IMG/VR virus record: IMGVR_UViG_2703718769_000016
Span: 1-19,413 of that record
Length of the DNA stretch: 19,413 nt
From: a virus
Lineage: Duplodnaviria; Heunggongvirae; Uroviricota; Caudoviricetes
Reading direction: 5' to 3' (one strand)
The notes under the pieces are model-generated. The model was not told where the DNA came from. It did not search any database and saw nothing but the letters and a program-made list of their open reading frames with translations. The translations under genes and the position numbers were made by a program. The number at the start of each line of letters is the position of its first letter. The first letter of the stretch is position 1. Positions 4,907 to 19,413 of this stretch are shown here, piece by piece.

Positions 4907-5486
4907 AATTATCTCCATTTTCACAAATGAACTTTGTTGATGCAGTGCCTGGTGCCTCTAGGTGACGTTAACCAGTTAACAATTAACGCCGGAATACATA
5001 AGAGGATACTTACGCCAGTAAAAGACCGCTTTACTGATTTAACTGTTCCGCGTGCGCTTAGCCGCATTCACCGCATCACAAAATTCACTTTAAAAAGGGC
5101 GGCAGAGCAGTCACGGAGTAAAACTGATACCGCCAAACGTCACCAGAAAATTGATAACAGAGGGCGTTGCAGCGGGGTTGTCACTTAAGCGTATGGTCAA
5201 CCTTACAACCCGGTGTCCTCAACGGGGAAGAAATAACCCCGCCATACTTACCGCCGCGCCATTTCGCGGATTGCCACAACCGGAAGCACACGGTCGAAGA
5301 AATCTAACGACAAGCCTTCTAAGGAAAAGACGCCTTCGCCGTGTGCTTTCGTGTTGTGCCCTGACTTTTCAGGGAAATATCCTTTCAGTAAACTGTCAGT
5401 GCCGGATGCTCACCCGTGTCCGGTGCACGTTCTCCCCCTCACCAGTGGATAACTCCAAAACTACTGACAACCCCAGGAGGGTGAAT

Positions 5487-13038: not shown

Positions 13039-13149
13039 AAACGATTTGCGGGGAAAGGATAGTTAAGTAGAATTGCTGCGGGTGCTTGAGGCTATCTGTC
13101 TCAGGCATGAACACCAAAAGGCAGATAGAGAAAAGCCCCAGTTAACATT

Positions 13150-13215
13150 ACGCGTCCGGCAAGACGCTTAACATTAATCTGAGGCCATATCTATGCTCTA
13201 CACACGTAGGTTAGC
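13150..13215 (-). ncRNA. Predicted Sok-like antisense RNA of the hok locus (approximate position)
   Basis: Inferred from hok-family organisation; candidate minus-strand promoter (TTGCCT then 17 nt then TAACCT) would place a transcript antisense to the upstream in-frame ATG and SD at 13181-13195. Confidence 0.25.
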
Positions 13216-13249
13216 CTCTTACGTGCCGAAAGGCAAGGAGAAGCAGGCT

Positions 13250-13405
13250 ATGAAGCAGCAAAAGGCGATGCTAATCGCCCTGATCGTCATCTGTTTAACC
13301 GTCATTGTGACGGCACTGGTAACGAGGAAAGACCTCTGCGAGGTACGAATCCGAACCGGCCAGACGGAGGTCGCTGTCTTCACAGTCTACGAACCTGAGG
13401 AGTAA
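13250..13405 (+). CDS. hok: Hok/Gef-family type I toxin (51 aa membrane peptide)
   Basis: MKQQKAMLIALIVICLTVIVTALVTRKDLCEVRIRTGQTEVAVFTVYEPEE: hydrophobic TM helix plus conserved RKxLCE...EVA motif of the Hok family; SD AAGGAG; an in-frame upstream ATG at 13193 with its own SD (mok-like leader); structured 3' region with fold-back hairpin and terminator. Confidence 0.8.
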   Translation: MKQQKAMLIALIVICLTVIVTALVTRKDLCEVRIRTGQTEVAVFTVYEPEE

Positions 13406-15687: not shown

Positions 15688-16737
15688 GTGCGGGTATTAC
15701 TTCGACCTGTTCTTGTGCCAGAACTCGGGCTGGTGATCGTTAAGCCGGGCCATGAATCCATGCCGGTATTCCAAAATACCCGGGTACTGGTGGAGCCGGA
15801 ACCGAAAAGCATGCGTAATCTGCCGTCCGGGGTCGTTCCTGCCGTTCGCCAGCCGCTGGCGGAGGATAAATCATTACTGCCATTTTTCAGCGACGAACGA
15901 GTGATTCGTGCTGCTGGTGGCGCTGGCGCATTGTCTGACTGGTTACTGCGCCATGTTAAATCCTGCCAGTGGCCACACGGCGATTATCACCACAGTGAAA
16001 CCGTCATTCACCGTTATGGCGCTGGCGCGATGGTGTTGTGCTGGCACTGTGACAACCAGCTGCGTGACCAGACATCCGAATCACTCGGGCAACTTGCTCA
16101 TCAAAACCTGTCAGCATGGATGATTGACGTCATACGCCATGCAATGAATGGCACGCAGGAGCGGGAATTGTCGCTGGCTGAATTATCCTGGTGGGCGGTC
16201 TGCAATCAGGTGGCGGACGCGTTTCCGGAGGCAGTATTACGTCGTTCTCTGGGGTTACGTGCGGAAAAAATCCGCTCGGTGTATCGCGAAAGCGACATCA
16301 TACCGGGAGAGCAGACCGCCACCAGCATACTGAAGCAGCGCACAAAAAATATTGCGCCGCCGTCTCACGCCCGCCAGCAACAGAACCCACCACAGGAAAA
16401 GACGGTGGTATGCATCACCGTTGATCCGGAGTCTCCGGAATCTTTTATGAGGCGACCTAAACGTCGCCGTTGGGTAAATGAGAAATATACGCGCTGGGTG
16501 AAGACACAGCCGTGTGCGTGTTGTGGTCAGCCAGCCGACGATCCCCATCACCTGATTGGTCACGGTCAGGGAGGGATGGGAACAAAGGCCCACGATATTT
16601 TCACGCTACCGCTGTGTCGGGAGCATCATAACGAGCTTCATGCGGATCCGCTGGCGTTCGAAGAAAAGCATGGTTCTCAGGTTGATTTAATTTTTCGTTT
16701 TCTTGATCACGCCTTTGCAACCGGTGTGCTTGGGTAA
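15688..16737 (+). CDS. YdfU-like DUF968 protein with C-terminal HNH-like Cys/His motif
   Basis: 349-aa ORF (same length as K-12 Qin YdfU from memory); GTG start with GGAGG SD; C-terminal CACCGQPADDPHHLIGHGQGG...CREHHNELH zinc-binding HNH-like signature. Confidence 0.7.
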   Translation: MRVLLRPVLVPELGLVIVKPGHESMPVFQNTRVLVEPEPKSMRNLPSGVVPAVRQPLAEDKSLLPFFSDERVIRAAGGAGALSDWLLRHVKSCQWPHGDYHHSETVIHRYGAGAMVLCWHCDNQLRDQTSESLGQLAHQNLSAWMIDVIRHAMNGTQERELSLAELSWWAVCNQVADAFPEAVLRRSLGLRAEKIRSVYRESDIIPGEQTATSILKQRTKNIAPPSHARQQQNPPQEKTVVCITVDPESPESFMRRPKRRRWVNEKYTRWVKTQPCACCGQPADDPHHLIGHGQGGMGTKAHDIFTLPLCREHHNELHADPLAFEEKHGSQVDLIFRFLDHAFATGVLG

Positions 16738-16749
16738 AAGGGGGTATTG

Positions 16750-17112
16750 ATGTGTATAGAGTTTGTTTTGCCTTACCCGCCGACGGTGAATACTTACTGG
16801 CGACGTCGTGGCAGCACATATTTTGTATCAAAAGCCGGGGAGCGTTATCGCCGGGCAGTGGCGTTTATTGTTCGCCAGCAGCAGTTGAAATTAAGCCTGT
16901 CCGGACGGCTGGCAATAAAAATTATTGCAGAGCCACCGGATAAGCGCCGCCGTGACCTGGACAATATTCTGAAAGCACCGCTGGATGCGCTGACGCACGC
17001 GGGGTTGTTAATGGACGATGAACAGTTTGATGAAATCAATATTGTACGTGGTCAGCCAGTATCTGGTGGACGGCTGGAAATAAGAATTACAGAGGTGGGT
17101 GTGCATGAATAA
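16750..17112 (+). CDS. rusA: RusA Holliday-junction resolvase (crossover junction endodeoxyribonuclease)
   Basis: 120 aa; motifs PPTVNTYWRRRG, DKRRRDLDNILKAPLDALTHAGLLMDD and GGRLEIRITE match the RusA family; SD AAGGGGGT. Confidence 0.85.
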   Translation: MCIEFVLPYPPTVNTYWRRRGSTYFVSKAGERYRRAVAFIVRQQQLKLSLSGRLAIKIIAEPPDKRRRDLDNILKAPLDALTHAGLLMDDEQFDEINIVRGQPVSGGRLEIRITEVGVHE

Positions 17113-17794
17113 CCAGTATTTACAGTTTGTTCGTGAGCAACTCATGATTGCCACTGCAGATCTCAGTGGGTCGACAAAAGGCCAGCTGGAAGCCTGGCAG
17201 GAAAATGCCCTGTTCGATACAGGGCGTTACAGACGCAAAAAAATTCGTTACCGCGATGAGGTAACTGGAAAAATGATCACGCGGGATAATCCCCCGATCC
17301 AGGGTAAACAATCACTGGCGAAAGGCTCATCAATTGCGCTGGTCAGTCCTGTTGAGTTTGCAACATCATCGTGGCGGCGTGCCCTTCTGGAACTGGAAGA
17401 ACATCAGAAGGCGTGGTTGTTGTGGTGTTATGGCGGAAACATTTGCTGGGAGCATCAGATCGCGATAACGCAGTGGGTGTGGAGTGAATTTAAAACTCAG
17501 TCCGGCTCCAGAAAAATTGCAGTGAAAACGCTGGAGCGTGTGAAGAAGTTGATCTGGCTGGCGGCACAGGATGTCAGAGGATGGGTTACCGGGTGTGAGG
17601 TCTACCAGAGACAGGAGCTTGCCAGACTGTGTGGAGTTAAGCCTGATAACTGGAGCCATAATTATGCGAACTACTGGCGTGAGATGTGCGATATTTTTAA
17701 GCGCCTCGATAGAGAATCCTTGATTTGCTCCGTGAAAATAAGAGCGCAACAAAAAGCGACCTTTTCACGACGAGATATTGCAAAAGTCAATTAA
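17105..17794 (+). CDS. Putative late-gene antitermination protein (Q-like), function inferred from position
   Basis: 229-aa ORF whose ATG overlaps the rusA stop (ATGAATAA) with SD GAGGTGG; followed about 70 nt downstream by a promoter-like element and a strong terminator (pR'/tR'-like); no Cys-rich zinc finger seen, so the family is uncertain. Confidence 0.4.
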   Translation: MNNQYLQFVREQLMIATADLSGSTKGQLEAWQENALFDTGRYRRKKIRYRDEVTGKMITRDNPPIQGKQSLAKGSSIALVSPVEFATSSWRRALLELEEHQKAWLLWCYGGNICWEHQIAITQWVWSEFKTQSGSRKIAVKTLERVKKLIWLAAQDVRGWVTGCEVYQRQELARLCGVKPDNWSHNYANYWREMCDIFKRLDRESLICSVKIRAQQKATFSRRDIAKVN

Positions 17795-17816
17795 ATCGCG
17801 TATGTTTCGTATAAAT
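17778..17816 (+). promoter_or_regulatory. Candidate pR'-like late promoter
   Basis: TTGCAA (17778-17783) then 17 nt then TATGTT (17801-17806); TATAAAT at 17810-17816 as an alternative -10. Confidence 0.25.
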
Positions 17817-17856
17817 CTGATATTTTGCCGATTTTGTACGCGATGGCAAAGTAAGA

Positions 17857-17882
17857 AAAAAACACCGCCAGGTGGTTTTTTT
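17857..17882 (+). terminator. tR'-like Rho-independent terminator downstream of the Q-like gene
   Basis: AAAAAAACACC-GCCA-GGTGG-TTTTTTT: hairpin flanked by an A-run and a T-run (bidirectional-looking). Confidence 0.45.
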
Positions 17883-18005
17883 ATGTCCGAAAATCTCGTC
17901 AGTACAGTAAACGCGCTGGTGGTGGTGAATACCGGTCTTTCAGCTTGCTGGCTTTTTTGACAAGAGTTATTGGTGTGTCACGTTAACCGGAAAAGGGAAA
18001 AAGAC

Positions 18006-18203
18006 ATGCTGAAACAGCAGGATATGACCGAAACCGCCAGAGTGGTGTTTAATGAATTAAGCGTCACTGAACCGGCGACAGTCGGGGAGATTGCGCAGAA
18101 TACTTATCTTTCACGTGAACGCTGCCAGTTAATACTGACCCAGCTTGTTATGGCGGGGCTGGCAGACTATCAGTTCGGTTGTTACAGACGCCTTCAGTCC
18201 TGA
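18006..18203 (+). CDS. Small wHTH-like DNA-binding protein (65 aa)
   Basis: SD AAAGGGAAAAAG before ATG 18006; TVGEIAQNTYLSRERCQLILTQLVMAGL resembles a winged-helix recognition segment; terminator overlaps the stop. Confidence 0.45.
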   Translation: MLKQQDMTETARVVFNELSVTEPATVGEIAQNTYLSRERCQLILTQLVMAGLADYQFGCYRRLQS

Positions 18204-18215
18204 AGGCTTTTTTAT
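18190..18215 (+). terminator. Rho-independent terminator
   Basis: Perfect hairpin GCCTTCAG-TC-CTGAAGGC followed by TTTTTTATTT. Confidence 0.6.
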
Positions 18216-18354: not shown

Positions 18355-19413
18355 ATGCTTAATACTGTAAAAATATCCAGTTGTGAGTTAATCAACGCCG
18401 ACTGCCTGGAATTTATCCGGTCGTTACCCGAAAATTCTGTTGACCTGATAGTCACGGACCCGCCGTACTTTAAAGTGAAGCCTGAGGGCTGGGATAACCA
18501 GTGGAAGGGCGACGATGATTACCTGAAGTGGCTGGACCAGTGTCTTGCGCAGTTCTGGCGGGTGCTGAAACCTGCCGGAAGTCTTTACCTGTTCTGTGGC
18601 CATCGCCTGGCATCTGATATCGAAATCATGATGCGTGAACGCTTCAGTGTGCTGAACCATATTATCTGGGCGAAGCCGTCCGGACGCTGGAACGGGTGCA
18701 ACAAGGAAAGCCTGAGGGCGTATTTCCCCGCCACAGAGCGCATTCTGTTCGCGGAACATTATCAGGGGCCGTATCGCCCGAAAGATGCCGGGTATGAGGC
18801 GAAGGGCAGGGCACTGAAACAGCATGTGATGGCCCCGCTGATTGCTTACTTTCGTGATGCGCGCGCTACCCTGGGGATAACGGCAAAACAGATTGTGGAT
18901 GCCACAGGAAAGAAAAACATGGTGTCGCACTGGTTCAGTGCCAGCCAGTGGCAGTTACCGAACGAGGATGATTACAGAAAACTTCAGGTGCTGTTTGCCC
19001 GGGTGGCAGAAGAGAAACATCAGCGGGGTGAACTGGAAAAGCCACATCACCAACTGGTCAGCACATACAGTGAGCTGAACCGGCAGTATGCCAGCCTGCT
19101 GGAAGAGTACAAATCACTGCGGCGTTATTTTTCCGTATCGGCAGCCGTTCCTTATACGGATGTCTGGACGCACAAGCCTGTGCAGTATTATCCGGGCAAA
19201 CATCCCTGTGAAAAACCGGCAGATATGTTGCGGCAAATGATTACCGCCAGCAGTCGTCCGGGTGACCTGGTTGCAGATTTCTTCATGGGGTCCGGTTCGA
19301 CAGTCAAAGCAGCGATGGCGCTGGGGCGTCGTGCAATTGGTGTCGAGCTGGAGGCTGAACGTTTTGAGCAGACCGCAATGGATGTACAGAATTTAATCAG
19401 AAAGAGAGAGTGA
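18355..19413 (+). CDS. DNA methyltransferase, beta-class amino-MTase (N6-adenine or N4-cytosine), apparently orphan within this window
   Basis: Motif IV TDPPYF near the N-terminus (residues about 34-39) and motif I DFFMGSGST near the C-terminus give the beta-group motif order; 352 aa; ORF ends exactly at the window edge. Confidence 0.85.
   Translation: MLNTVKISSCELINADCLEFIRSLPENSVDLIVTDPPYFKVKPEGWDNQWKGDDDYLKWLDQCLAQFWRVLKPAGSLYLFCGHRLASDIEIMMRERFSVLNHIIWAKPSGRWNGCNKESLRAYFPATERILFAEHYQGPYRPKDAGYEAKGRALKQHVMAPLIAYFRDARATLGITAKQIVDATGKKNMVSHWFSASQWQLPNEDDYRKLQVLFARVAEEKHQRGELEKPHHQLVSTYSELNRQYASLLEEYKSLRRYFSVSAAVPYTDVWTHKPVQYYPGKHPCEKPADMLRQMITASSRPGDLVADFFMGSGSTVKAAMALGRRAIGVELEAERFEQTAMDVQNLIRKRE

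Follow-up and report, generated by a model that had tools for sequence, protein, structure and literature searches.

The window, by which we mean the whole 19,413-nucleotide stretch of DNA analyzed here, is a segment of a lambdoid prophage that encompasses genes for the DicF RNA and the hok/sok system, a DUF968 (YdfU-type) gene, rusA, a gene in the position of the late antiterminator Q, a small open reading frame (ORF) and a DNA methylase gene. The order DUF968/YdfU, rusA, Q, which is shared with phage 82, puts the last of these three after the nin/rusA region and ahead of the late (lysis) genes, and in a 99.9% identical Escherichia coli genome, the region further downstream contains three tRNA genes and genes for an esterase, a holin, a lysozyme and a lysis protein. 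A previous sequence-only reading of this DNA had reported that a 229-amino-acid ORF in the Q position overlaps the stop codon of rusA, and this ORF is real, with its ATG located 8 nt inside rusA (16747-17112; recognized by the Pfam RusA profile). The encoded protein is 100% identical to the RefSeq protein WP_024243668.1, annotated as “bacteriophage antitermination protein Q” (E. coli O10:H32 NMBU-W12E19), and is also encoded, residue for residue, on an IMG/VR contig; the whole 1.4-kb stretch is present in about 300 of the 5426 complete E. coli genomes.

Several other elements of the segment were identified along the way. The DicF antisense RNA gene occupies positions 5097-5148 on the minus strand (Rfam score 76.7 bits), and the sok antitoxin RNA of the hok/sok system maps to positions 13080-13255 on the plus strand (117 bits), both scores being above the gathering score. 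Lambdoid prophages of E. coli typically carry both DicF and hok/sok. Directly 5' of rusA lies the gene for the 349-amino-acid DUF968 protein (15688-16737, plus strand), which has a weak similarity to HNH nucleases at its C-terminus; the DUF968-rusA order also occurs in the PPompW phages, in 689R5 and in an Stx2a phage.

The only Pfam match of the protein encoded in the Q position is PF06323 (“Phage_antiter_Q”), with a score of 279 bits (E = 3.6e-83), the cutoff being 25, and with the alignment covering positions 1-217 of the 220-position profile. PF06323 is the Q82 family (PMC9388147; PMC7171158), one of three unrelated families of Q proteins, the other two being Q21 (PF06530) and lambda Q (PF03589) (PMC9388147; PMC7171158). 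The protein also matches PHROG 304 (‘anti-termination protein Q-like’, E = 1.7e-103), and it has no match to the PF06530 (Q21/Q933W) profile; by contrast, the Q protein of Stx2_EH2201 matches PF06530 (E = 6.4e-53). In a tblastn search of phage records, the Q gene of phage 82 (X92588.1, “phage 82 Q antiterminator”) was matched over its full length, and pairwise comparison with this biochemically characterized protein, which itself matches PF06323, showed 152 identical residues out of 229 (66%) without a single gap (E = 8e-115). The two proteins are of the same length, and their genes share the nin-region position after rusA. The Q protein of phage 434 (“Q82-like”) is 62.9% identical to the window protein, and the same family includes the Q proteins of the PPompW phages, vB_EcoS-689R5 and Gifsy-1 as well as gp40 of N15. 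Homologs in a large protein collection number 2612, and among those listed with a source name, the label is antitermination protein Q or antiterminator in every case except for a few uninformative ‘hypothetical proteins’. Finally, all 26 columns that are invariant in a 54-sequence alignment of the family, which extends down to 25% identity, are kept in the window protein.

The absence of a Cys-rich motif, which was the reason to regard this gene as unusual, is borne out by the sequence: the cysteines of the 229-residue protein (positions 108, 114, 164, 176, 195 and 208) form no CxxC, CxC or Cx4C motif. This is not a peculiarity of the present copy. No Cys or His is invariant or near-invariant in a 16-sequence alignment reaching to N15 gp40 (23% identity) or in the 54-sequence alignment (25%), and C108 is N or S in relatives. 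With no such residue kept constant across its members, the lack of a zinc finger is a trait of the Q82 family. In lambda Q, the zinc ribbon forms the “arm” (PMC9388147), and among the Q families, zinc binding is confined to that of lambda Q. The window protein differs from lambda Q in that it shows no sequence similarity to the latter, does not match the PF03589 profile, and has no Cys4 zinc ribbon motif and thus no arm; its fold resembles the body of lambda Q only distantly. Since only the lambda Q family has a zinc finger, a gene in the Q slot that lacks one should not be taken as odd.

The AlphaFold2 (AF2) model of the protein (mean pLDDT 76.8) comprises a confident helical domain at residues 80-228, with low-confidence segments at residues 31-43 and 63-75, and suggests a putative helix-turn-helix around residues 169-195 within the C-terminal domain. 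When this model was used as the query for Foldseek, Pseudomonas AlpA ranked first, with an E-value of 0.16 that is not significant by itself. A sequence search of the PDB with the protein gave no match, so that there is no sequence-detectable solved structure for the Q82 family, and a search of NCBIfam yielded no model match. These two negative results, together with the missing CxxC, are what could be invoked for the alternative raised in the sequence-only reading, namely, that a non-antiterminator or a strongly divergent regulator occupies the Q slot. The full-length match to the Q82 model far above the threshold and the 66% identity to a characterized antiterminator speak against this, as does the presence of a cognate 82-type pause element directly downstream (see below), and with no Cys or His invariant in the family, the absence of a zinc finger is ancestral and does not reflect a loss. 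We consider this alternative to be next to negligible: of the earlier proposal of a divergent antiterminator or something else in the Q slot, the slot stands and the divergence or non-Q identity does not, and the profile search led to an antiterminator family, PF06323, not to a non-antiterminator one.

Thus, the protein belongs to the Q82 family, its gene is in the Q position, and it is followed by a conserved promoter, pause and terminator architecture (Table 1). Taken as a whole, we hold it to be very likely that the ORF encodes the Q protein of an E. coli lambdoid prophage, a late-gene antiterminator of the phage-82 (Q82, PF06323) family, and that its cognate late control region, of the 82 type, follows on the 3' side; that this particular copy is active in antitermination we infer by analogy with phage 82 Q. 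A Q gene with a late promoter, a pause signal and a terminator is a standard arrangement that is already known and already annotated. The mapping of the late promoter, the pause element and the terminator, with the -35 hexamer inside the Q coding sequence, represents the gain in annotation.

Table 1. Coordinates of the Q gene and of the elements of the late control region in the window.
Feature	Position	Strand	Basis
Shine-Dalgarno sequence GAGGTG of Q, 7 nt before the ATG, within the 3' end of rusA	17092-17097	+	Sequence reading
Q gene, 229 aa, ATG at 17105, TAA at 17792-17794	17105-17794	+	Pfam, PHROG, identity to phage 82 Q, RefSeq identity, AF2 model
-35 hexamer TTGCAA, in the last Q codons (I-A-K)	17778-17783	+	Same distance from the stop codon in phages 82 and 434; 47/48 matching relatives
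Region expected to contain the Q-binding element (QBE), about -29 to -1	17784-17812	+	Predicted
-10 hexamer TATGTT, 17-bp spacer from the -35	17801-17806	+	17-bp spacer and TAnnnT/CAnnnT in 47/48 relatives
Probable +1, first A of AAA, 7 nt after the -10	17813	+	Register fit to 82 pR' (PMC5001585)
Sigma70-dependent pause element TGATATTTT, extended -10-like TGaTATTTT, +6 to +14	17818-17826	+	TGnTATnnT 11 nt from the -10 in 47/48 relatives
GCC discriminator-like element, +15 to +17	17827-17829	+	GCC in 39/48 relatives; PMC5001585
Predicted promoter-proximal pause/Q-loading site, +25, U (T17837)	17837	+	Register with 82 pR'
tR'-type intrinsic terminator: A7 (17856-62), stem CACC/GGTG with loop GCCA (17863-17874), G, T7 (17876-82)	17856-17882	+	Scan, fold, compensatory change
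Second intrinsic terminator, in the late leader, 3' of the 68-aa ORF	18190-18213	+	Scan (stem of 7 pairs, T-run); fold energy -10.5 kcal/mol (z -2.8)

The pR'-tR'-type pair of promoter and terminator that had been noticed 3' of the Q-slot gene is borne out, with support for the promoter coming from comparison with relatives. We compared the corresponding regions of phage 434, 689R5, the PPompW phages, Klebsiella and Enterobacter phages, phiES15, a locus with a CP-933P-type Q (33% identical) and 80 IMG/VR loci. The layout consisting of a -35 hexamer, 17 bp, a -10 hexamer, 11 bp and TGnTATnnT fits 48 of the 50 distinct downstream sequences, the exact spacings being preserved in 47 of these 48. 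The composite pattern TTGCAA-N17-TANNNT-N11-TGNTANNNT-GCC has a single occurrence in the 19.4-kb window (17778-17829) and none in 200 dinucleotide-preserving shuffles. In the CP-933P-type relative (L008), TTGCAA is placed after the Q stop codon, which indicates that the conservation of this hexamer is not a coding constraint. In phage 82, the hexamer could be located relative to Q because the sequence record, which ends at the Q stop codon, still includes it. A consensus scan called no plus-strand promoter in this region; the -10 matches the consensus at 4 of 6 positions, and with 9 of 12 positions matched overall, the promoter fails another rule of the scan.

Two members of the family depart from this layout: in Gifsy-1 (L007) and N15 (L009), it is absent from the 60 nt before and the 200 nt after the Q stop codon, so that the loading sites of these two phages must be organized or located differently. 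In phage 434, the PPompW phages and vB_EcoS-689R5, the promoter and pause spacing followed by a terminator is as in the window.

The register of the downstream elements relies on phage 82. The late promoter of that phage, pR', has been described as containing a -10-like pause element (+9 to +14) with an extended -10, GCC at +15 to +17, an AT-rich stretch and a U at the +25 pause (PMC5001585), and the GCC is needed for pausing at 82 pR' (PMC5001585). With +1 at 17813, the window reproduces these published features, including the extended -10-like element at +6 to +14, the GCC and the U at +25, where the +1 was assigned partly by fitting the phage 82 register, which itself comes from verbal descriptions in PMC5001585. 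The start site, the pause and the location of the QBE we thus infer by analogy with 82 pR'. Slippage at the 82 late promoter is reported in the title of a study cited in PMC5001585, and the AAA start assigned here fits that title.

The sequence-only reading had implied a different register, with TATAAA (17810-15) as the -10, which would put the -10-like element at about +1 and a lambda-like pause at about +16; in lambda, the pause element is located at +1 to +6, the pause at +16/17 and the terminator at +193. TATAAA agrees with the consensus in 5 of 6 positions and catches a reader's eye first, but the hexamers at 16-18 bp (TCAATT or GTCAAT) could not serve as its -35, TTGCAA would be 26 bp away, and relatives have ATGCAA, GTGTAA or AGTCTA in its place, whereas TTGCAA-17-TAnnnT is nearly universal. 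Furthermore, the pause of phage 82 falls at +25, and its element spans +9 to +14 (PMC5001585). The lambda-like register is accordingly very improbable, and its assignment of the -10 is wrong: TATAAA coincides with the start site, and the relatives do not share it.

In the 17778-TTGCAA register, the -10 block resembles the pause block beyond the hexamers themselves, the two forming a direct repeat, TAAATCGCGTATGTT/TAAATCTGATATTTT (17792-17806 and 17812-17826; TAAATC-N3-TATNTT), with the copies 20 bp apart. This repeat may be related to Q binding.

Several other candidate elements near the end of Q and in the leader were considered and rejected. A hairpin of the leader RNA, TATTTTGCC/GGCAAAGTA (17821-17829/17845-17853, +9 to +41), would draw the transcribed pause element into base pairing, and the leader fold to which it contributes has a z-score of -2.86. 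Among 27 relatives, no pair of this hairpin is changed on both sides, and the pairing is no better than in shuffles; uncompensated breaks occur in several lineages, and the hairpin is absent in phage 434 and in three other clades, so we do not regard it as constrained. A CII/paQ site, which in phage 434 reads TTGCAATATTTTGC, was sought on the minus strand at the end of Q; it is absent in the window, which reads TTGCAATATCTCGT and lacks the second TTGC repeat. The inverted repeats 17769/17890 and 17795/17837 are not conserved in relatives, and by a rough estimate, about 0.1 repeats of their length would be expected by chance in a stretch of this size. Finally, a 25-codon ORF (17884-17960) that starts in the T-run of the terminator has its frame broken by a 1-nt indel relative to the copy in an Stx2 phage.

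The hairpin flanked by A and T runs that the sequence-only reading placed about 60 nt downstream of a promoter-like element also exists, and the consensus scan called a terminator-like hairpin with a T-run at 17864-17876; the distance needs adjusting, to about 50 nt from the +1 assigned here or about 57 nt from the -10. The predicted terminated RNA is about 68-71 nt long. The structure is supported by the comparison of the homologous Stx2a phage hairpin, CCGCC/GGCGG, with that of the closest relatives, CCACC/GGTGG, which differ by a compensatory change of A-T to G-C. All promoter-bearing relatives but two have a hairpin and a T-run that end between +50 and +98, mostly near +70. The terminator lies at about +50 in phage 434, L008, phiES15 and the relative L032, whereas in the window and most of the E. 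coli relatives, some 20 additional nt precede it and it is found at about +70.

In the window itself, the stem is short, with four pairs plus A/U pairs, and the 41-nt fold has an energy of -9.7 kcal/mol (z -2.0). Within 17700-17900, a single base sets the window apart from the 99.9% identical E. coli genome, namely, A17862, where that genome (L002, position 9863) and the nearest relatives have C. A C at 17862 pairs with G17875, bringing the energy to -16.1 kcal/mol (z -5.0), and A17862 removes this pair at the base of the stem. As judged from these predicted folds, the tR' stem appears to be weakened in this copy. A small chance exists that A17862 makes the terminator leaky, such that the late-leader genes (the small ORF, the methylase and the tRNAs) would be partly on without Q. 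In broader terms, the window protein belongs to the one Q family that is still without a solved structure and that may act without a closed nozzle.

The weakened stem (-9.7 versus -16.1 kcal/mol) also bears on the possibility that the gene is a true family member but a silent relic in a defective prophage, with a non-functional gene or site, or with a terminator weak enough to leave a leaky, Q-independent late operon. Such a reading can further appeal to DicF and hok/sok in the window, which are common in cryptic lambdoid prophages, and to the stx slot of a close relative, which contains only a pseudogene fragment. It has to contend, however, with an intact ORF that recurs unchanged in independent genomes and on a viral contig, with the retention of all family-invariant residues and of promoter and pause elements that match the consensus of the relatives, and with a near-identical prophage that has an apparently complete lysis cassette. 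On this evidence, we deem a silent relic fairly unlikely and favor a functional antiterminator of the Q82 family.

The mechanism by which such an antiterminator would act can be taken from phage 82 by homology (PMC9388147, PMC5001585, PMC7171158). The sigma70 holoenzyme would initiate at the constitutive promoter, with the -35 at 17778 and the -10 at 17801, starting at about 17813. Region 2 of sigma70 would then re-bind the extended -10-like element, and the complex would scrunch and pause at about +25. Without Q, the polymerase is expected to escape and to stop at the small terminator (17856-17882), releasing an RNA of about 70 nt. When Q is present, its C-terminal helix-turn-helix would bind the QBE (roughly -31 to +8) and Q would engage the paused complex, with stimulation by NusA. 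Q would subsequently travel with the polymerase, which would resist pausing and read through the terminators at 17856-17882, 18190 and later ones, switching on the small ORF, the DNA methylase, the tRNAs and the lysis and morphogenesis genes.

Phage 82 and the window also differ in some respects. One-third of the residues differ between phage 82 Q and the window protein, mostly in the N-terminal part (30-80) and at about 160-200, where the putative DNA-reading helices are located; given this clustering, the QBE specificity of the window protein may differ from that of phage 82 Q. The gene neighborhoods differ as well: in phage 82, ylcG (orf45) lies between rus and Q, whereas in the window rusA overlaps Q directly, and the leader downstream of Q in the window is of the Stx-phage type.

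The latter difference reflects a sharp boundary. From the terminator hairpin (about 17863) to position 19413, the window is 94-96% similar to Stx2a/Stx2d phages (L011, 1501-3048), including the small ORF and the methylase gene, and those Stx2 phages carry upstream a 126-amino-acid Q of the PF06530 (Q21) family. Because the likeness to the Stx2 phages starts exactly at the hairpin, with a different Q upstream, the Q gene, promoter and pause element appear to be an exchangeable cassette that ends at the terminator. Such behavior is to be expected given that Q proteins are specific for their own loading sites, and the junction at tR' illustrates how one Q type can replace another 5' of the toxin slot.

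The shared segment includes, between tR' and the methylase gene, the small ORF, which encodes 68 amino acids (17997-18203, plus strand). Its product matches PHROG 331 (E = 6e-38), a group of unknown function, and resembles a TrmB-like helix-turn-helix at a sub-threshold score, and the ORF is conserved in Stx2 phages.
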